A stretch of DNA of 38,209 bases, from positions 1 to 38,209 of IMG/VR virus record IMGVR_UViG_2545824644_000015; one strand, 5' to 3'. Below, piece by piece: positions 2,568 to 24,204 of this stretch. A program made the translations under genes and the position numbers. Position 1 is the first letter of the stretch. Each line of letters begins with the position of its first letter. This DNA comes from a virus. Taxonomy: Duplodnaviria; Heunggongvirae; Uroviricota; Caudoviricetes. The notes beneath the pieces are model-generated. The model did not search any database. It was not told the origin of the DNA and worked only from the letters and a program-made list of their open reading frames with translations.

Positions 2568-5108
2568 CTAAATTATCTGCGTCACTGACAATGCTTTCTT
2601 TAACACCACTCCTCCGCTCGTTGTTGCTCCCTTTGAGTACTCAAAGGAGATATTGGCTGAAATGCCAAGATTCTCATCAGGACAATACCACCAAATTCCA
2701 ATAGGGAGCACAGATGCCTTGTCATAACTGACAGTGCGATCATACGACGACTGGTACCCATTGAAGTCATACCATTTAAACCCAGTAATTGCGTTGCCAG
2801 CAATCATGCAATCAGTGCTCATAACTACACCAAACGCATTCTTAATATTAGATGCAACTAATATGGCACTCATTGCGATATTCCTAAAGCTACATGACGT
2901 CACAGAGTATCCATTTGTATTTGCGTTTATAACTCCTATTTCTCCAAGGAAAGTCGTTGTCCTTATAGATCCATTAAAAAAAGATGTTGATTTTGTCCCT
3001 CTAAGACACACTCCCACATCAGACTCAAACGCGCTATCAGATATATCGATATACGTTGAACTTGCTGATGGATTATTCTTATAAAAGCTAACTCCGTAAT
3101 TTAGATTATTGAAATTACAACTATTAACCCTTACAGATGATACTCTTGCATCATATAAATAAAGGCCTGCCGTCATCCCTTCAAGGTGTGTGTCGTTTAA
3201 TGGAAACACTGCATTATCCCCAGCCTCGTTAGGATCATTCATTAATGTTTTAGGGTTTGTGAATTTATTTTTAATTATCGATGTAAACTCATCACAAAAA
3301 AAGTCATGTGATGCGCTATTAATTACCTTAAACCCTGAGAATCCGAATGGCTTCCCACCAGAGATTATTGCCAAACAAAATGCTTGCGCCCCACCGCGTA
3401 TTCTATATTGATTTGATTTTGATTCAAATTTAAAATTGCCTTGTAATGTTGAGTTGGTGATACAACTAAAAGAGTTACCTATGTATGATACGTTATTATT
3501 ATATGATGACGTTATGCTATAGCTGTTTACTTTATTTCCAGATATAAGAACATTATCACAAAAAAATTGAGCACATATCCCTGATTTTGATGTAACAACA
3601 TTATCAGACATTATGCTATGAATAACCATTGAGTGAAAAGTTATGCCCCAATGATCATGGCTATACGAAGTTGATATTAATGGATCGTTTATTATATTTC
3701 CAGTGCAGTTAACATAACAAACTTGCCTATATACTCCTATTGTTGAATCATTCAACCCAAGAGTTGAGCAAATGTTATCTTTAATAGAGCAAACAGAACT
3801 TGATGTGGCATAGCTAAACATAGCTTCTGGGATATTCCCTGTTAATCTATTCCTCTCGAATCTACCAGAATAACAATAATATCGCATCTCAACATGGACA
3901 TTATGGAAGTTACAACCAATCACTTCTGGCTCGATCTGAGACAAAAGCATGATTCTTCTTAGAGCATTGCTACTGCTTTTCATCGTCACACCATCTTTAA
4001 TTTTGAATGGCGTAAGGTTACCTGTTGGGAACCCAAATTTCGCAGTCCCAGCCACCTGATTTACCACCAGAGGTTGCGCCAAAATAGCCTTATTGGTAGT
4101 TGTATGACCTATAATTTTTGTTACCTGAATGAACTGAGATTGGTATCCATTCAAGTTACGTGTAAGTGCCAACCCATCTATGCTGTCAGCAGGTGTGGTG
4201 GATTTTTCCGCTTCATCAATACAGAACGGATATCCATTATCAATGACGACATATTGCCCTGTGCGATCTACACCATCGAGATATACCTCAGAGTGCCCTG
4301 CAGATGCAGGCTGAGAAAAAACTGTCATAGTTGGGAAGTCATATGGCTCAACCCTAAAATGATTACCCAATGTTATTGTGCCACGACCATATATACCTTT
4401 TGCCCCGGCTGGCGCTGTATAATCTGTTGTGGTGGTAAGGTCAGCTCCTGTAATGTTTACTTCTTCTCCGAAGTTAAACGCTGCCGTCAGTGCCTGCTCG
4501 GTTGTTACAAACCTATTGGTGTAGTTAAGGATATGGTTTAAATCATATCCGTTAAGATTCCCTACAGACTTCCAGTTTGAATCTGGTGAACTACCAGGAG
4601 GGACAGTTAATGGAACTGACAGATCACCAGTATAAATGTAATACCACCCAGTTGATGAATAGAATAGTGCCTGATATTTACTTGTTATCGTTGCACCAGA
4701 AGCAAAGGATACATTTTGCAGGCGTTTATAAACATTAAATCTAAAATTTTCATTAGCGTATAAAGAAAACTGATCTGGGTCGTACCCTAAAACATTCGGA
4801 AAATAGAACTGCTTCGCCCCATACGCATCGTACACAGCCATAGAATGGCCTTGCACAGTTACGAACTTGGCAATCTGTCCGTTATATACCGGGTAACCAG
4901 CAGCGTTAATGATGATTGGTTGAGAAACAGGAACGTGAGAACCGTCTTCGTTCTCCACATAAACCTGAATCCGGTTTTCAGGATTTACAGGGTCAGTGTC
5001 AATTTTACCGATATAAATTTCGCCATTAGCTACGGCTTTAAAAGAACGAGCCATAGTGAAGAGTTGCGAAGGCATCGATACAATCACATTAGCTGTAATG
5101 TCTGTCAT
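2568..5108 (-). CDS. Tailspike protein (P22-type head-binding N-domain fused to divergent receptor-binding domain)
   Basis: 846 aa; N-terminal ~115 aa [45 protein letters not shown]... matches the conserved P22/Sf6/HK620 tailspike head-binding domain as remembered; rest is an AT-rich, Asn/Ser/Thr-rich beta-helix-like domain. Confidence 0.9.
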
Positions 5109-5164
5109 TTAATTTGCTCCAGATACAAGGAATCGCCGCAGCGGGGCTACGGTGAATTTTGGGC

Positions 5165-5190
5165 ATAAAAAACCCAGCCGAAGCTGGGTC
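5165..5190 (-). terminator. Rho-independent terminator upstream of tailspike gene
   Basis: Plus strand aaaaaacccagccgaagctggg; on minus strand GC stem cccagc/gctggg followed by U-run. Confidence 0.6.
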
Positions 5191-5354
5191 GTTGCGTTGG
5201 TTATCTGTCAGTAGTTATGTACTGGCTGAAGGATTTGTACAAAAAAATCACCTGACGGTGGGTTAATTTTTGCATTTACCTGGGCCATATTGACTACTTA
5301 TAAAATGAGATCAATATTTAATCGCCCAATAACGGGTGTATGTTGAGGTATATC

Positions 5355-5534
5355 ATGGCGAAAAAACCAGGTGAAAACACAGGAAAAAACGGCGGAATAT
5401 ACCAAGAAGTTGGCCCACGCGGCGGTAAGAAAGACAATTTTGCCACCGTCAAGGACAACGAAAGGCTTCCACCAACAACAAAGCCAGGTCATGGCTGGGT
5501 ATTAGATAAGCGAACTCCAGACAGCAAAAAGTAA
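5355..5534 (+). CDS. Small conserved protein of unknown function (tentatively YjzC-like)
   Basis: 59 aa MAKKPGENTGKNGGIYQEVGPRGGKK...; RBS gagg 7 nt before ATG; own terminator immediately downstream. Family assignment from memory only. Confidence 0.55.
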   Translation: MAKKPGENTGKNGGIYQEVGPRGGKKDNFATVKDNERLPPTTKPGHGWVLDKRTPDSKK

Positions 5535-5540
5535 TAATCA

Positions 5541-5563
5541 AGCCGGGTCACTCCGGCTTTTTG
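5541..5563 (+). terminator. Rho-independent terminator
   Basis: agccgg-gtcact-ccggct hairpin followed by ttttt. Confidence 0.65.
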
Positions 5564-5913
5564 ATATGTCGCTCGCAGAACTCAACAAGCCTGCTCATTA
5601 AGTAGCAGTAAGTCTCGTTGGCTCTTCCTGGTTCAACATCAACACCGACCCTTGAGCAGATATCGAATGCCATGTGAGCGCACTCATGGGCAATAGTAGA
5701 TAGTTTGCCATTGAACACGCCTATCACATGCAAAACACCATTCTCGCTGCTCATTGTATGAGACGCTCCGTTGGCATCCGAGTCCTGCACGTCCACACCA
5801 AGTTTTTGATGCAGGCGTTGCCATTCTGGAAAGTCTCTACAAAACACAATTGTACCGCTCTCAAAGAGCGGAACGAGCATCTTTGGTACGTTTCCAATGT
5901 TAACTTTTTTCAT
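5548..5913 (-). CDS. Hypothetical protein with HExxH motif (possible small zinc metallopeptidase, ImmA/IrrE-like)
   Basis: ORF with internal start MKKVNIG (AGGA 4 nt upstream); contains HECAH with downstream Glu residues; no other recognisable domain. Confidence 0.4.
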   Translation of the reverse strand: MKKVNIGNVPKMLVPLFESGTIVFCRDFPEWQRLHQKLGVDVQDSDANGASHTMSSENGVLHVIGVFNGKLSTIAHECAHMAFDICSRVGVDVEPGRANETYCYLMSRLVEFCERHIKKPE

Positions 5914-5947
5914 GGTATCCTGCGCAAAACTAAGGAGGTTGGTGTGA
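5913..5947. repeat. 35-bp exact repeat copy 1 (tggtatcctgcgcaaaactaaggaggttggtgtga) carrying SD plus GTG start
   Basis: Identical to 7678..7712; contains aaggagg SD and GTG start of the downstream plus-strand gene; reverse strand supplies AGGA RBS and abuts start codon of the minus-strand HExxH gene. Confidence 0.9.
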
Positions 5948-6333
5948 AGCAATTTCTTGCTGCTATGTTCTTATTCATATCTTTTGGGGCTACAGCAGAG
6001 TGCTGGGTCGTTGGAGATATGCGCGGAATAAGCTATTCAGAACGAAATAATTTCCATCCGGAAGAAGATGGTTTTAGTGGAACATTCATCATTAAGACAA
6101 GCGGTGAAGATGCCAGCATCACATATTCTGGGACAGATGCGGGCGGCATGGCTTACAAAGCATTGTCTAAAAACTCCATCATAGGAATCGGCGCGAATGG
6201 CGAAACTCAACGCGTTATCGACTCATGGGTAATACATCCTACTGGAACAGTTTTAATGTCAAAAACCATTTCCGGTTATGGAAATATGGATTCAACCAAA
6301 GCTTTTGTTGGAAAAGTAAAAAGAAAATGTTAA
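5944..6333 (+). CDS. Secreted/periplasmic hypothetical protein (signal peptide)
   Basis: GTG start 7 nt after aaggagg; N-terminus VKQFLAAMFLFISFGATA-ECW has n/h/c signal-peptide architecture; Cys near both termini of the mature protein. Confidence 0.6.
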   Translation: MKQFLAAMFLFISFGATAECWVVGDMRGISYSERNNFHPEEDGFSGTFIIKTSGEDASITYSGTDAGGMAYKALSKNSIIGIGANGETQRVIDSWVIHPTGTVLMSKTISGYGNMDSTKAFVGKVKRKC

Positions 6334-6354
6334 TGATAGGATTATGGCCCTACA

Positions 6355-6540
6355 TCAACAGGTTACGCGCCCCTGAGTAATTCTATTGCGGATTTGCTTC
6401 TTACGGTGGTTTAGGCTGGAGAGCTTGTCTTCTGCTTCTGATATTTGCGCATCCAGATCTTTAAGTTCAAGCTCTGAAAGTCGCTGGTCAAGCAGGGTTT
6501 GGTTTAACTCAATGTTGTTCAGACGTTCTTCTATGGTCAT
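6355..6540 (-). CDS. Small coiled-coil hypothetical protein
   Basis: 61 aa; strong RBS taaggag 6 nt before ATG; heptad-like Leu/Glu-rich sequence. Confidence 0.45.
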   Translation of the reverse strand: MTIEERLNNIELNQTLLDQRLSELELKDLDAQISEAEDKLSSLNHRKKQIRNRITQGRVTC

Positions 6541-6552
6541 GATTACTCCTTA

Positions 6553-6580
6553 TAAAAAACCCACCTGAAGGTGGGTTTTA
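6553..6580. terminator. Bidirectional rho-independent terminator
   Basis: aaaaaa-cccacc-tgaa-ggtggg-tttt; A-run and T-run flank a perfect 6-bp GC stem so it can terminate either strand. Confidence 0.75.
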
Positions 6581-6583
6581 TAA

Positions 6584-7552
6584 TTAGATTTCTGGTTTCA
6601 TTCTTCCGAAAACCTTTTCTATTCCTTTTTCGTATTCTTCTCTTGTCTCACTCATCGCTGCGACACCAAGAAGCTTACCGATATGCTGACGCAAAGCCTT
6701 GACACCAATTTCAGAAAGGAACAGATGCAACTTATCAGATTGTTTTCCGTTCTCGTCTCGGCTGGCTCGAATCTGTTCAAGGATTTTACCTTTACTCTTT
6801 GCTAGCGGGGTGTATATCTGCATGTTGGTTAGCTGCCCAAAACGAATAGGTCGTCCTTTCTCTGGCCTATTCAGGCCGTACAGTCGATACCACTCCTCGT
6901 ATAGCTCATCTGGAAATTCCTTTTCATATTGACGAGCCTCTTCACGAACAAACGCTTTGAACTCGTCAATGACAGCCTGAACTTCTGGACGATAACCAGC
7001 AAGCGCATACGCAACCCCCTTAATTCCCGCCTTAGCGGAGGCATTAATAAGTCTCTGTGCTGCGGCGGCTGCCTTTAACCGTGATTGTGGTAGATCGTCA
7101 TTATCTTTGGCTTCTATTAGTGCCCTACCAATATCAACAATTGCTGTAATGTCATAACCTAACGCTTGATGAACGGTTTTAGACTTCGAAGTAAGTTGAA
7201 ATTTATAGGGATTTTCCATTTTTCGCTGCAATTCTAGATCTCGGTATTTGCTCATATACTGAGCGCCAAGCAGTTGATCTAAATCCCTGGCATGTTCACC
7301 AATCCCTAGCAACTGAGATAATCCAGTTTTCGTAACAACGACAGTTTTCGACTCGTCATCCAGTACATAACATTCAGCATCAATGCCAAAATCATCTAAA
7401 AAGTTACCACGATGAGTTGCCCTGAGAATCTTACTTTTCCATCTTGCAGCAGCTGCTTTCTTTGCTATTTCAGAACGCTGCTCTTTAGTCAGCGACTTTG
7501 CGCGAGCGATCCCGCCCTTAGCTTTCCCTTCGCCACTTTTCTTTTCAGTCAT
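6584..7552 (-). CDS. Hypothetical protein, P63C-domain-like with basic N-terminal region
   Basis: N-terminus MTEKKSGEGKAKGGIARAKSLTKEQRSEIAKKAAAARW resembles the conserved N-terminal motif of phage P63C-domain proteins (from memory); start placed at Met22 so the operator-like repeats lie upstream. Confidence 0.5.
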   Translation of the reverse strand: MTEKKSGEGKAKGGIARAKSLTKEQRSEIAKKAAAARWKSKILRATHRGNFLDDFGIDAECYVLDDESKTVVVTKTGLSQLLGIGEHARDLDQLLGAQYMSKYRDLELQRKMENPYKFQLTSKSKTVHQALGYDITAIVDIGRALIEAKDNDDLPQSRLKAAAAAQRLINASAKAGIKGVAYALAGYRPEVQAVIDEFKAFVREEARQYEKEFPDELYEEWYRLYGLNRPEKGRPIRFGQLTNMQIYTPLAKSKGKILEQIRASRDENGKQSDKLHLFLSEIGVKALRQHIGKLLGVAAMSETREEYEKGIEKVFGRMKPEI

Positions 7553-7553
7553 A

Positions 7554-7643
7554 ATGCAAGCACCTTTGTTGTGATGTATGCTTGCATTATATGCACTGTA
7601 CACACATACAAGCAAGCATAAAACAAAAACAAAATGCTTGCAT
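7554..7643. promoter_or_regulatory. Cluster of four 10-bp operator-like repeats (ATGCTTGCAT and inverse) in divergent intergenic region
   Basis: ATGCTTGCATTA at 7578 and 7634 (identical 12-mers); inverted near-copies ATGCAAGCAC at 7554 and AAGCAAGCAT at 7610. Confidence 0.5.
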
Positions 7644-7677
7644 TACAACCGCGCTACTCCAACTACACATTATCATC

Positions 7678-7712
7678 TGGTATCCTGCGCAAAACTAAGG
7701 AGGTTGGTGTGA
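7678..7712. repeat. 35-bp exact repeat copy 2 carrying SD plus GTG start
   Basis: Identical to 5913..5947. Confidence 0.9.
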
Positions 7713-8158
7713 GTGAAAAATTATCAGTTGAGATTTACAGGGATGCCAAAAAATTGATTAAAAAGGCATTGCTGATTTCCCTATCTTTGTTAGCCATTGC
7801 CATTGTTTATTTTGTGGCAGACAAAATCTATACAGAACAAAAAAATAGCAAAAAAAGCGCTGAACTGATTATGCGAGCCGAAAATGCTGTCAAGGGTAAA
7901 TCACCCATGGTATTCAACAGAACATTCCTTGGCGAAAGCTCCTCTATTTCTGTTTGGTTTATTAATGATTCAGATGGGCATATTCTTGTAGAAAAAAACG
8001 GTGAAAAATCATTGTTTTCATCAAGAGAATCCGTATACGGTGGCATCAATGCATACCATCAAGCCGGAAAGGCATGTGAAACCCTGTCTTTTTCTATGAC
8101 TTCAGGTTTTGTGATATCTGTTTCTTGCGATTTTGATGATTATTACACTAAAAAATAG
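7709..8158 (+). CDS. Membrane-anchored hypothetical protein (candidate superinfection-exclusion/moron product)
   Basis: GTG start after aaggagg inside the repeat; basic N-terminus followed by hydrophobic segment LLISLSLLAIAIVYFV; occupies the sieA/immI position of P22-like phages. Confidence 0.5.
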   Translation: MSEKLSVEIYRDAKKLIKKALLISLSLLAIAIVYFVADKIYTEQKNSKKSAELIMRAENAVKGKSPMVFNRTFLGESSSISVWFINDSDGHILVEKNGEKSLFSSRESVYGGINAYHQAGKACETLSFSMTSGFVISVSCDFDDYYTKK

Positions 8159-8175
8159 CCATCCATGGCATTTAG

Positions 8176-10008
8176 TCACTGCTGTGTTGCCTCAGTAGCA
8201 AACAGCGGTCTGATGGCATTCGCAGCATTATTTAGCGCTCTTTCATAGGCTGGCGTTCCTGCTTTGGTGTTTGCCAGACGTAAGAGCGCATTCCTGGCCA
8301 TAGGGCTTTCATAAACCCTCGACATAAGGCCAATCCCTGTTTCCCCAGCCAATAGCGCGCCTCCGGTTTTTAGGTTACCAATAACCCTTACCAAAGGCGC
8401 GAGTGTCATGCCAGTCTTCGTCACAACATTAGCCTCAGATGCTCTTTTGGTAGCATCGAGAATAGATAACATCCCCTCTATCTCTTTTCCGTTCTTCCCA
8501 CCAAATACAGTTTTAAACACCTGACCATTTGCTTGTTTTTGCAGTTTGCCAAGCTCGCTCATCATTTTCTGAGGGCTGTCACCTACCTTGTCAGCTATTT
8601 TGCTGATATATGCCGCCCTTAGCATGTCTTTACCTTTTTGATCGAGTTTCCCGTACAATCGAGCTATATCTGACCCATATTGTCCATACACAATGGTATT
8701 TACAGCCTCGGGAGTTAAATCTCCTTTGTTTAGAACGTTTTTAAGGCGCGTTTGAGTTGCATGTGTTGCCATTTTTGCATAATCAGCTTTTCCCGCTCTC
8801 CATGCTGAAGCATCTTTTGGGCTAAGTCCTTTCGCTATAGATTTACTAAGGCTATTGGTTAGCGAGTTATAGACCCTGTCGACCATTGTTTGCGACATTG
8901 ATGGCAGAACTGTACGATCGCCTTTTACGTCAATGCGGAACTGAGTTCTCAGCTTATCAAGTAACTCAAAGGCATCATCTCCATTTGTTATCTCCTGAAT
9001 GGCATTCTTATAATCATTAAGCGCAGAAATGGTCTGGGTGTCAGAAACACCTTTAAGTTTCCCAAGTTCGTTTACTGCTCCGTCGATAGCTCTTATGGCG
9101 CCACTTGTATCAACTGGCTTTCCAACCATTCTTCCTGACAGGCTGTTTAGTTTTGACTTGGCTAACGATTTTTCCCTTGCAACGCCTGACTTTAGACTAT
9201 CAACGACTACAGATGGATCGTAGTCGCCGTATTTTTCGGTGAAGCGATTAACAAGCTTGGTTCTGGCATCCTGCTGTGCGGATCTCATTGGTCCAGTACC
9301 AGCTATGACTCCTTCTGAGTAACCCTGCAGTTGATTGCCAAGTTTTGTTTTTGGAGGAACTACATCCGATGTCATAACTGGTACATCTGCCGCAGCGGCA
9401 CGCTTGAGCAATTGCTGATCTGCTGGTGATATTTCGCCACGAACAGCAGTAATTCCACGCCCTATTCCCTTTGCTGCTGCGGAAAGAACCCCCTGAGCGG
9501 CAAGGTTAACTCCGGCATTTTTAGCTGCATTTTGTGCGAAATCGCCTTTCTGATTTGCGGCCTCTGCCAGTGAGCCAATAGCCATGCTTCCTGCCGTTCC
9601 AACTCCTGGAACTAAATACCCACCAATTGTTTCACCGGCTTGCGCGTAGGGGTCTGTCGGTCGATCGACAGGGCGATAAACATCATCCAAAACCTTGGGG
9701 CCACCAAGCCCTTGGCTGATTGCATTAATCAGACTTGCGCCACCCTGCAATACGTCAAATGGTATGTTTACCAGACCGCGACCAGCCTGCTCTGCAATTT
9801 GCCCTGCACTTTGACCACCTGTGAGCCAATCGCCAGCTTGTTGCATCAATGATAGTTCTTCACGTGCTGGTTCATTATTGGCCTGATTAACTGTTTGTTG
9901 CTGAACAGCCTGACCAGCAAAATACTCATCAATGGCGGTGCCAATATCTTCCGTGCTCGTACCATCAGGGAAGGTAAATGTCTTACCGTTTGCAGTTACT
10001 TTCATCAT
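8176..10008 (-). CDS. Ejection (DNA transfer) protein, P22 gp16-like
   Basis: 610 aa, Gly/Ala-rich; position and size match P22 gp16; N-terminus [22 protein letters not shown]. Confidence 0.8.
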
Positions 10009-13488: not shown

Positions 13489-14906
13489 TACTCAATCCTT
13501 ATCTGGCAGCCAGACAGAGTGACAGGTGACTTCGTGATAACGCGCAATTTGAAGCCAACATTTTTCCTGATTCGCCCGACACGCTTCCACAAAACACGTT
13601 TGTCATAAACGAACGGTTCATTCTGCTCAATCATCTGCTCACGCCCGTAATTGATGCCGTCAGTGGTTGCAGAGAGGAACAGGCGGTCGGCGTACTGAGC
13701 TACGCCAGTGGATGATTCCACCTCCAGATCGAAGCATCTGGCGTTATCCGCTTTGAACAGTGGAGTAAACAGCAGGTGTTCCTGTTGAAGCCCATACTGA
13801 CTGCTGATATCGAACTGCAATTTCCCGGTCACCGATTCCAGCTTATCGCCGCACGTTATCTGATTTCCTTCGTAAATGAAGTCGATAGCGCGGTACACAT
13901 CGTCATACAGGCCTGTTTTCAGTACACACCATTGCGGACCATTGGCACTTGAAGATGCGTCGTATACGAGGACATGGCGCGGAAGATGGATAATCAGCAG
14001 CTCATGCGCATCAAATCGCAGCGATTCCATCACGCCATCAGCCAGTTCATCAGCAGTGTAGGAGCGGAGGATTTTCTCAATGCTCGCGCTGGCGATTGGT
14101 GACACCTGACCGGATCCGATGATGTATACAGACGGCGCACCTGTTGCCGGATTGCTGATGAACGCATAGGAATCAGCAAACGGCGTTTTGCAGTAAGTCC
14201 CGGCGATTCCTTTTTGCACCATCAACGATGGCTGGGCGACATACAAAGCGGCACCAACAGTGGTTGCGCCCGTCAGGGAGAAATATTCAATAGTCGATGA
14301 ACCAAAGCAGACTATGAAGTCTCGCCATGTACCTATGCCGATGATGCCGTCAGGCTGCGACTCTGCGCGATATTGTGCGCTGTATCGGTCAGGATGTGAT
14401 TCGTCTTCAGGGTCAGTGATAAACCATGAATCAGTGCCGTCTTTTGACCACGCATAACGCCCACGTAAGCGCGTAATGTCGCGGACTGAACCTAACTCAT
14501 ACTGCGTGAATCCGCTGTCTGTAGGCCAGTTTGAGACTGTTTTAACCGTGCCATCATAACGATACTCTACCAGTTGACCATTAACGCCTACCGCCTGTGA
14601 TGTCCGACCATGCGCCATTGATACGCGACCACTTCCGGCAACATCACCGACTTCACTTTCGCCTTTGTAAAGCTTCCCACCACACACGCGATAAACAGCA
14701 TTCTGCGCCATGTTGTACTCGACGCCGCGAGATACGCCGTTCACATCAGAACGTTTGGCAATGCCCGGGAATGAGCGAAGATATCCGCTGCTGTTCAGGA
14801 TTTCTTTGGGTGTAGCCAACATATTCACTGGCAGATAGTCGATATAGTCGGCGTTTCGAAAGTCTTTGCCGACGCCTTTCATGAGCGGAAGTTGCTGAAT
14901 CGGCAT
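13488..14906 (-). CDS. Tail hub / tail accessory protein (P22 gp10-like)
   Basis: 472 aa, same length as P22 gp10 as remembered; synteny. Confidence 0.8.
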
Positions 14907-24048: not shown

Positions 24049-24124
24049 TGGTGCTGGTTAACGGACTTGAACCGCTACCCATTCGCTTACAAGGCGACTG
24101 CTCTACCATTGGAGCTAAACCAGC
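24049..24124 (-). tRNA. tRNA-Thr (anticodon UGU), CCA encoded
   Basis: Hand-folded cloverleaf: 7-bp perfect acceptor stem, perfect 4-bp D stem, anticodon loop CUUGUAA, T-loop TTCAAGT, discriminator A then CCA. Confidence 0.7.
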
Positions 24125-24129
24125 ATATT

Positions 24130-24204
24130 TGGCGGGACAGCGTGGACTCGAACCACGATAAGAAGGTTAACAGCCTTCCGTAATTACCTTTATACGACTG
24201 ACCC
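24130..24204 (-). tRNA. tRNA-Asn (anticodon GUU), CCA encoded; one acceptor-stem mismatch
   Basis: Hand-folded: T-arm CGTGG-TTCGAGT-CCACG, anticodon loop CUGUUAA, acceptor stem 6/7 paired, D stem 3/4 paired; could be a degenerate copy. Confidence 0.55.

Follow-up and report, generated by a model that had tools for sequence, protein, structure and literature searches.

The 38,209-nt DNA stretch analysed here (the window) comprises positions 1 to 38,209 of IMG/VR record IMGVR_UViG_2545824644_000015. It represents an E. coli P22-like (Lederbergvirus-type) phage or prophage in the orientation opposite to the P22 map; its nearest relatives in the phage collection are phiv205-1, CUS-3 and Kapi1. 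The subject of this report is a 34-bp element, designated E, that occurs twice on the plus strand between the homologues of the tailspike gene 9 (2568..5108, minus strand) and of gene 16, which encodes a DNA ejection protein (8176..10008, minus strand). Gene 9 is the left border of the 'ant moron' region, and gene 16 the right border of the slot in which both copies of E reside. The DNA between gene 16 and gene 9 was described to be in 'rapid flux', with ten types of gene content among sixteen genomes (Villafane 2008, PMC2629481). The genes sieA, mnt, arc and ant are all absent from the window.

E was discovered as part of a 35-mer, TGGTATCCTGCGCAAAACTAAGGAGGTTGGTGTGA, located at 5913-5947 and 7678-7712. 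A mismatch search and shuffled sequences bear out the claim of a preliminary description of this DNA that the repeat is exact: no third copy is present on either strand of the window when up to three mismatches are allowed, and none was obtained in 100 dinucleotide-preserving shuffles (0 expected). In a repeat search of the window, the 35-mer formed an isolated two-copy family (D2). The neighbouring bases differ between the copies (…ttttttca and agcaattt around copy 1, …attatcatc and gtgaaaaa around copy 2) so that the 35-mer does not belong to any longer duplication. The conserved unit E has 34 bp and closes with GTG. Base 35 (A) is external to E and is identical in both copies because AAG and AGT, the second codons of the two genes, both begin with A.

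E fills the entire spacer between two divergent start codons, the ATG of hkcC and the GTG of a variable gene, termed cassette gene. Its right two-thirds consist of a perfect Shine-Dalgarno (SD) sequence, UAAGGAGGU, a 5-nt spacer and the GTG start. The gene that starts at this GTG is oriented against the late operon; its product is small and either exported or located in the membrane. In E copy 1 (5913..5946; left flank class U1), the first base (5913) is the complement of the A in the hkcC ATG. The hkcC ribosome site, an antisense AGGA at 5918-5921, lies within this copy 4 nt upstream of the ATG, and a putative extended -10 element (TGgTATCCT) covers 5913-5921 on the plus strand. The SD TAAGGAGGT at 5932-5940 precedes the in-frame GTG (5944-5946) that opens cassette gene 1 (5944..6333, plus strand). 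The 129 aa product begins with MKQFLAAMFLFISFGATA/EC… and has an N-terminal signal-peptide-like segment. E copy 2 (7678..7711; left flank class U2, the regulatory region of a P63C-domain gene) ends with the in-frame GTG (7709-7711) of cassette gene 2 (7709..8158, plus strand). Its product (149 aa) comprises a short cytoplasmic N-terminus, a membrane helix at about residues 20-38 and a C-terminal domain. Open reading frames (ORFs) and hydrophobicity confirm what had been noted before, namely that each copy ends in the GTG of a gene for a protein with a signal peptide or membrane anchor. Likewise, the reverse complement of copy 1 does supply the AGGA and the ATG of a divergent gene with an HExxH motif, the ATG overlapping the first base of E.

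The origin of E became evident from a comparison with P22. With P22, window positions 5300-5946 share 99.4% identity, which extends as far as the sieA GTG and no further. E and the P22 sequence upstream of and including the annotated sieA start agree in 33 of 34 bases. In the P22-pbi record, a putative promoter, PsieA, is annotated in the 31 bp before E, and the sieA coding sequence begins at E bases 32-34. Therefore, E corresponds to the sieA leader, SD and GTG, and the HExxH gene (5548..5913, minus strand, i.e. in late-operon direction; 121 aa) is hkcC, a gene named in P22 (Villafane 2008, PMC2629481). hkcC is 99-100% identical across 80 IMG/VR loci and matches PHROG 1365 (unknown function), and no Pfam or NCBIfam family matched it. 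The hkcC ORF is also present in the P22-pbi record, yet unannotated there. Copy 1 abuts hkcC, copy 2 heads the gene adjoining gene 16, and both cassette genes are directed against the late operon. By sequence and map position, E is a member of the P22 sieA-leader class. The preliminary description had recognized the repeat and its possible role as a joint, but neither the known P22 sieA leader nor the 'ant moron' region.

For a population survey, IMG/VR loci were collected with a 31-mer of E (66 loci) and, independently of E, with the hkcC protein (80 loci). Metagenome loci were collected with a relaxed E pattern (82 loci), and further IMG/VR loci with the 3' half of E (86 loci). Altogether, E is present in 297 of 334 fetched loci as well as in 494 of 5,426 complete E. 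coli genomes. The E pattern had no match in 185,579 species-representative genomes, those of Escherichia and Salmonella included. The census comprises 143 distinct 454-nt haplotypes. By the 120 bp left of E, 10 unrelated classes can be told apart. They include hkcC (U1), the P63C gene together with its regulatory region (U2) and a YafO-toxin pair, the latter found in two E. coli prophages. To the right of E, 15 unrelated ORF families of 62-164 aa were found, among them SieA, HK620 hkcB, epsilon34 gene 14 and both window genes. Searching related prophages for the repeat at gene starts, as had been proposed, revealed a 34-bp core that heads 15 unrelated ORF families. Fourteen of them open with a signal peptide, a lipoprotein box or a membrane anchor. 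In 13 of the 15 families the same GTG is the start codon, and one variant has ATG at this position. A function is known for SieA only; eight other cassette families did not yield any informative Pfam, PHROGs, NCBIfam or PADLOC family.

Each left-flank class keeps an ATG at the edge of E, and a long ORF follows it only in hkcC. The other edge ORFs have 2-32 aa and look like relics, e.g. MKKVNI… of hkcC in one class. At copy 2, a 29-aa Cys-rich ORF (MIMCSWSS…; 7587-7676, minus strand) starts 1 nt from E.

Flanks and cassettes combine almost at random: 57 flank-cassette combinations were observed compared to 62.2 +/- 2.4 expected under random assortment (Cramer's V 0.38). The parts of the window, left flanks U1 and U2 and cassettes C1 and C6, are found in nature in all four pairings (U1-C1, U2-C6, U1-C6, U2-C1). 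Cassette gene 1 occurs behind E with at least seven different left flanks, and cassette gene 2 behind both U1 (loci L010 and L011 of the survey) and U2 (L004, L069). The U2-E junction of copy 2 recurs in L069 and L070, both E. coli prophages, and alongside an identical P63C protein in 10 places. E is the only sequence common to otherwise unrelated neighbours and, therefore, behaves as a recombination joint. Judged from these sequences, E is both a shared translation-initiation head and, at the level of the population, the recombination joint of a hypervariable slot. This agrees well with the earlier proposal of a joint for module exchange, for which 10 flanks and 15 families in near-free combination and a relative without one E-to-E unit (see below) now provide support. 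The alternative proposal of a portable translation-initiation cassette holds as a description: the half composed of SD, spacer and GTG heads 13 unrelated families and occurs without the 5' half in CUS-3, but E is not an autonomous mobile element.

Positions within E differ in their variability. In the hkcC-anchored sample, for which E was not used in the search, bases 1-11 and 14-25 are essentially invariant, and bases 12-13 carry at least six alleles. When all loci are considered, bases 11-13 (window 5923-5925 and 7688-7690) show at least nine alleles and the other 31 positions are almost invariant. On neither side of E is the association of bases 11-13 with the flank class significant (p = 0.22 and 0.10); crossovers inside E as well as recurrent mutation would fit such a lack of linkage. 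Copies with only the 3' half break at bases 10-16 (CUS-3, L253, L267, L316), which coincides with the polymorphic site. In CUS-3, where the genes upstream are co-directional, only E bases 16-34 are kept. In two cassette families, the similarity to E ends after the SD at base 25, and the start codon is an ATG of their own. E is best seen as two abutting blocks: a 5' block (bases 1-10) with the start of the divergent gene and AGGA, and a 3' block (bases 14-34) that reads AAAAC-UAAGGAGGU-UGGU-GUG.

The 5' block reads TG-G-TATCCT, which is compatible with an extended -10 element. In the diverged copy L301 (TGGTAGAGT), TG-n-TAnnnT is retained and the antisense AGGA is lost. The patterns of L301 and CUS-3 hint at a promoter in E: its left third (TGgTATCCT) might act as an extended -10 promoter and might express any ORF that follows in the lysogen. 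If E does contain its own promoter, it would be a natural unit of promoter, ribosome site and start codon in 34 bp.

At the other end of many cassettes, a second conserved motif was detected, the R-box. Its consensus CCATCC(A/G)TGGC comprises 11 nt and is a short imperfect palindrome. In the window, the R-box CCATCCATGGC (8159..8169, plus strand) directly follows the stop codon of cassette gene 2 and is located 6 nt before the gene 16 stop codon; cassette gene 1 lacks it. About eight unrelated cassette families carry the R-box or a variant with one or two mismatches directly after, or at most 6 nt from, their stop codon, and the motif adjoins at least five different 3' alleles of gene 16. In two families, the R-box is followed by a ribosome site similar to the 3' part of E, GGGAGGTTAATATG, and by a second ORF. 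In the hkcB family, it lies within the end of the ORF and encodes the C-terminal …NPSMDD; because it is coding there, it is possibly a relic of an ancestral gene end. The R-box may be either such a relic or a functional linker.

Taken together, the window very probably contains two copies of the conserved 34-bp head of the sieA/hkcB accessory slot, with E as the crossover point for cassette exchange. Since E alone is shared by unrelated flanks and cassettes that assort almost freely, cassette-exchanging crossovers occur in E. The exchange would be homologous recombination catalysed by RecA or by a phage recombinase of the Erf/Red type. Minimal pairing segments of 31-34 bp for RecA and of 23-27 bp for Red-beta have been published (PMC3945230), and the 34 bp of E are at the length needed for efficient pairing. 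E plus 18 nt upstream has been used as a lambda-Red homology arm for the replacement of sieA, and a sieA-yfp fusion was found to be expressed in lysogens; expression of sieA was stronger in the carrier state than in the prophage (PMC4697819).

Several observations weigh against parts of this reading. The residual association between flanks and cassettes is significant (p = 0.008) so that assortment is incompletely free. Recurrent mutation instead of crossovers could account for the unlinked bases 11-13. With regard to a promoter in E, a sigma-70 consensus scan did not yield any plus-strand promoter upstream of or in either E copy, and the P22 records place the putative PsieA just upstream of E, i.e. 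outside it. With regard to function, no family was found for cassette gene 1 in Pfam, NCBIfam or PADLOC or for cassette gene 2 in Pfam, PHROGs, NCBIfam or PADLOC. The single-sequence AlphaFold models of both proteins are of low confidence (pLDDT 56 for the all-beta model of cassette 1, pLDDT 63 for cassette 2). Homologous exchange can shuffle cassettes that already bear E, but it leaves unexplained how 13 unrelated ORFs came to fit the same GTG in the first place, or how unrelated ORFs were initially fitted between the head E and the R-box tail.

A separate question is why this genome has two heads. E is present once in 295 of the 297 loci and twice in only two, the window and a prophage of E. 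coli ET479 (L002). Both copies within a genome share base 12, which is T in L002 (a frequent allele in the census) and G in the window. Some E. coli genomes gave multiple E hits; in the two such records that were checked, no other copy lies within 6 kb so that the additional copies are presumably located in other prophages. The DNA between the two window heads (5948..7677) comprises cassette 1, two further genes (61-aa and P63C) and the regulatory region U2; with one E added, it makes up an E-to-E unit of 1,765 bp. Exactly this unit is missing from L011, which is otherwise collinear with the window (98%) and has a single E. In L070 and L002, the circularly permuted order P63C-U2-E-cassette 1-61aa is found. 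The order 61aa-P63C-U2-E is contiguous in L007 as in the window, and E-cassette 1-61aa is contiguous in L002, L053 and L070. A canonical locus of the P63C type comprises, in late-operon direction, gene 16, cassette, E, P63C, the 61-aa gene (optional), mnt, arc, ant and tailspike. The mosaic breakpoints of the window coincide with gene boundaries (5913, 5946-5953, 6332, 6349-6357, 6540, 6551-6578, 7678, 7711-7722 and 8153-8175).

These arrangements suggest that the two heads would result from the joining of two slot units, orf59a-hkcC-E-cassette 1-61aa and 61aa-P63C-E-cassette 2-gene 16. The most likely route would be a single crossover between two natural arrangements in the shared 192-bp 61-aa module, which is likely the homology that joined the units. 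The window phage therefore carries two envelope proteins under the same leader instead of one, of the kind that is expressed from the prophage in P22. An equivalent route would be the integration of an E-bearing circle at E. A 1,765-bp circle with one E (cassette 1-61aa-P63C-U2-E) would enter the E of a one-head phage by a single crossover and could be excised again. As L011 corresponds to the window minus exactly one E-to-E unit and the permuted order exists in L070 and L002, integration or excision of a circle is equally consistent with the structures, and circles of this kind are documented for the PeSLs (promoter-early stem-loops) of T4-like phages (PMC2839356). However, an unequal crossover in the 192-bp 61-aa module between an L007-type and an L070/L053-type locus yields the same structure, and this module offers more homology than the 34 bp of E. 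The circle is considered rather unlikely. It concerns only the route to the two-copy state and is compatible with E as the cassette-exchange joint of the slot.

A more specialized process would explain the exact fit of unrelated ORFs between the same head and tail. E head and R-box tail might form a 'socket' that captures and exchanges small envelope genes with ORF precision, a tentative and, in our view, improbable proposal. Mini-circles with E could be captured in this process, or an ORF could be placed by another mechanism between start codon and tail, both of them fixed. If the proposal is true, it would amount to a PeSL- or integron-like gene capture in temperate enterobacterial phages, and among the approximately 15 cargo families, most would be proteins for superinfection exclusion or surface modification that have not been described so far. 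Still less probable is the stricter version, according to which E and R-box are the recognition site of a dedicated, site-specific or otherwise specialized, cassette-exchange mechanism. The same start codon in 13 of 15 families and the occurrence of CCATCCRTGGC after the stop codons of many unrelated cassettes, beside at least five gene 16 alleles, would be expected from such a mechanism. Yet, neither in the window nor in the annotated relatives is a recombinase, transposase or integrase gene found in or beside the slot. Furthermore, the breakpoints inside E vary (bases 10-16, 25, 30), the R-box of the hkcB family simply encodes …NPSMDD, and E is devoid of secondary structure.

E might also be kept identical as target of a trans-acting regulator, a small RNA or protein that is common to the phages or provided by the host, with mosaicism as a by-product. 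Almost complete invariance of 31 of 34 positions next to three highly polymorphic ones is more constraint than a ribosome site needs. Nevertheless, little credence is given to this idea: two back-to-back ribosome sites and a -10 element could explain most of the constrained positions, and the shared regulatory target or complementary small RNA considered in the preliminary description found no support. Neither a full nor a half copy of E, and no complementary sequence, exists elsewhere on either strand of the window. Both E copies and their antisense strands fold no better than shuffled sequences (z = 0.1 to 1.5), and Rfam contains no family at E. Folding and Rfam also led to the rejection of E as a structured regulatory RNA such as a riboswitch, small RNA or antisense target. 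At the gathering threshold, Rfam detected only two tRNAs in the window, away from E.

That the repeat is the edge of a recent one-gene tandem duplication or the target-site duplication of a mobile element is suggested by two direct repeats around 1.7 kb, but is practically refuted, since identity stops abruptly at both ends of the 35-mer, the downstream proteins belong to separate BLASTP clusters, the intervening DNA encodes no transposase and 295 other loci have just one copy of the 34-mer, in a variety of contexts. A transposon or insertion sequence footprint was rejected, too: the genes between the copies encode a signal-peptide protein, a 61-aa coiled coil and the P63C protein, and the repeat search found no terminal inverted repeats at 5948/7677.

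The two cassette proteins of the window were compared with SieA. In an all-against-all BLASTP, both cluster separately from SieA, and the SieA motif FxRYPxEAxxFNK (PMC10883804) is absent from both so that an assignment to the SieA family was rejected. Each has one hydrophobic segment, compared to three to four membrane helices in SieA types A-C. Cassette 1 matches PHROG 2651 (unknown function). In RefSeq and in the PHROG profile, this protein starts at an internal ATG 7-13 residues downstream (window 5944-6333; L002 3175-3543), which would delete most of the signal peptide. As SD and GTG are shared with other cassettes, the longer form is favoured, and the database entries start 7-13 residues too late. 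A similar argument applies to SieA itself, whose start codon was considered uncertain in a 2024 paper (162 or 164 aa). Because the GTG at E bases 32-34 is common to 13 families and the ATG variant is located at the same position, the 164-aa form (start at 3145 in the P22 locus L001) is favoured. A terminator-like site was not found between 6333 or 8158 and the respective next gene. By their position, orientation and membrane targeting and by analogy with SieA, the two proteins can be regarded as candidate superinfection-exclusion or lysogenic-conversion factors.

The other genes and features of the slot are as follows. Left of hkcC lies the orf59a homologue (5340..5534, plus strand), which is 99.4% identical to P22 and matches PHROG 3202 and, weakly, a YjzC-like family. 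It is followed by a tmnt-type hairpin (5540-5559). The P63C-domain gene (6584..7552, minus strand, i.e. in late-strand direction; 322 aa; Pfam PF10546, E = 7e-14) is placed with respect to E copy 2 just as hkcC is with respect to copy 1. The identical protein was detected in 5,062 index blocks of the assembly collection (27 contigs read), and it is located beside a cassette and gene 16 in 10 of 10 places shown. Between the P63C start and E copy 2 (7551..7645), four TAATGCAAGCA half-sites form two operator-like inverted pairs (I1, I18 and D13 in the repeat search), which are kept in all flanks of the U2 class. This region looks like the operator of a repressor. The sole sigma-70-like site in the vicinity of the repeat, TTGGCA-18-GATAAT (7720-7749, minus strand), is contained in the 5' end of cassette 2 and is directed towards E copy 2 and the P63C gene. 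The 61-aa coiled-coil gene (6355..6540, minus strand; PHROG 7586) is a small module found in 29 loci in at least three different neighbourhoods. A terminator-like hairpin of the AAAAAACCCACC-TGAA-GGTGGGTTTT type occurs in three copies (5164-5190, 5238-5264 and 6551-6577) at module boundaries and could serve as a further short repeat with homology for recombination. Far from the slot, two adjacent tRNA genes are encoded at 24052-24204 on the minus strand. The P22-like phage BTP1 has a tRNA-Asn/tRNA-Thr pair after the late regulator gene q.

The flux of the 'ant moron' region thereby acquires a defined anatomy: a head of 34 bp that is invariant, an ORF that varies and, in many cases, a tail of 11 nt. 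The exchange of flanks and cargo close to linkage equilibrium represents a quantified natural case of short-homology linkers that drive phage mosaicism. In addition, E is a simple sequence tag that allows to retrieve about 15 families of small envelope proteins, and these families are candidates for new superinfection-exclusion or lysogenic-conversion factors. A literature search for 'ant moron', PsieA and the sequence itself yielded no description of E apart from its use in a recombineering arm, and a preprint on a hotspot survey is silent on the locus. Publications on the region report variation in gene content and neither a discrete 34-bp element, near-free assortment, a common GTG nor a tail motif; the older sources on PsieA (Hofer 1995, Vander Byl 2000) were outside the coverage.

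Among known systems, the 5' region of P22 sieA is closest, with the same sequence (33/34) and the same map position beside hkcC and orf59a; the window differs in that sieA is absent and the head present twice. At the same junction between gene 16 and gene 9, BTP1 expresses the antisense RNA STnc6030, which excludes superinfecting BTP1 (Owen 2020, PMC7067206). Similar to what is proposed for the cassettes discussed here, STnc6030 is a prophage-expressed unit that runs against the late operon and acts in superinfection exclusion. In contrast, its effector was reported to be an RNA instead of a protein, and both E and the R-box are absent from BTP1 (L333). In the gap between gene 16 and tailspike gene of BTP1 (14022-14178, minus strand), TATAAT, GGAGGG and a 23-aa hydrophobic ORF, MERDLLNFVFLIFGLVVGKLLFA, were noticed. 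This ORF lies in the junction where STnc6030 is described to map.

Morons of lambdoid phages are defined as units of promoter, gene and terminator that are inserted in late operons and often expressed from the prophage (PMC2629481). Small genes against the late operon and expression in the prophage, as known for P22 sieA in lysogens, are common to both. However, morons bring their own promoter and terminator, whereas here the head is fixed in the locus and only the ORF changes. Neither cassette is followed by a terminator, and in place of a consensus sigma-70 site there is only the possible extended -10 element TGgTATCCT in E. An integron-like cassette system was rejected, too, as the region has no recombinase and E no hairpin-forming site.

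Also similar are the PeSLs, mobile regulatory cassettes of T4-type phages, where recombination between copies shuffles, deletes and duplicates genes (Arbiol 2010, PMC2839356). In both cases, the ORFs lie in hyperplastic regions, are unrelated and have no known function, and a short conserved regulatory sequence extends up to their SD and start codon. E ends in the SD and start codon of unrelated ORFs, and recombination between its copies shuffles genes, as the 57 combinations and the empty-site relative indicate. In contrast to E, a PeSL combines a consensus sigma-70 promoter with a strong terminator stem-loop, and about 50 copies are present per genome in lytic phages. E contains neither a consensus promoter nor a stable stem-loop, is found in one copy per genome, rarely two, in temperate phages and is directed against the late operon.

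A further parallel is the modular theory of phage evolution, in which Susskind and Botstein reportedly introduced linker sequences in 1978. The concept of linkers has mostly given way to 'illegitimate recombination plus selection'. Like such linkers, E is short, conserved and located at a module boundary, and it offers homology through which otherwise unrelated modules can be exchanged. Unlike the general concept, E would be a concrete and quantified example confined to one locus.

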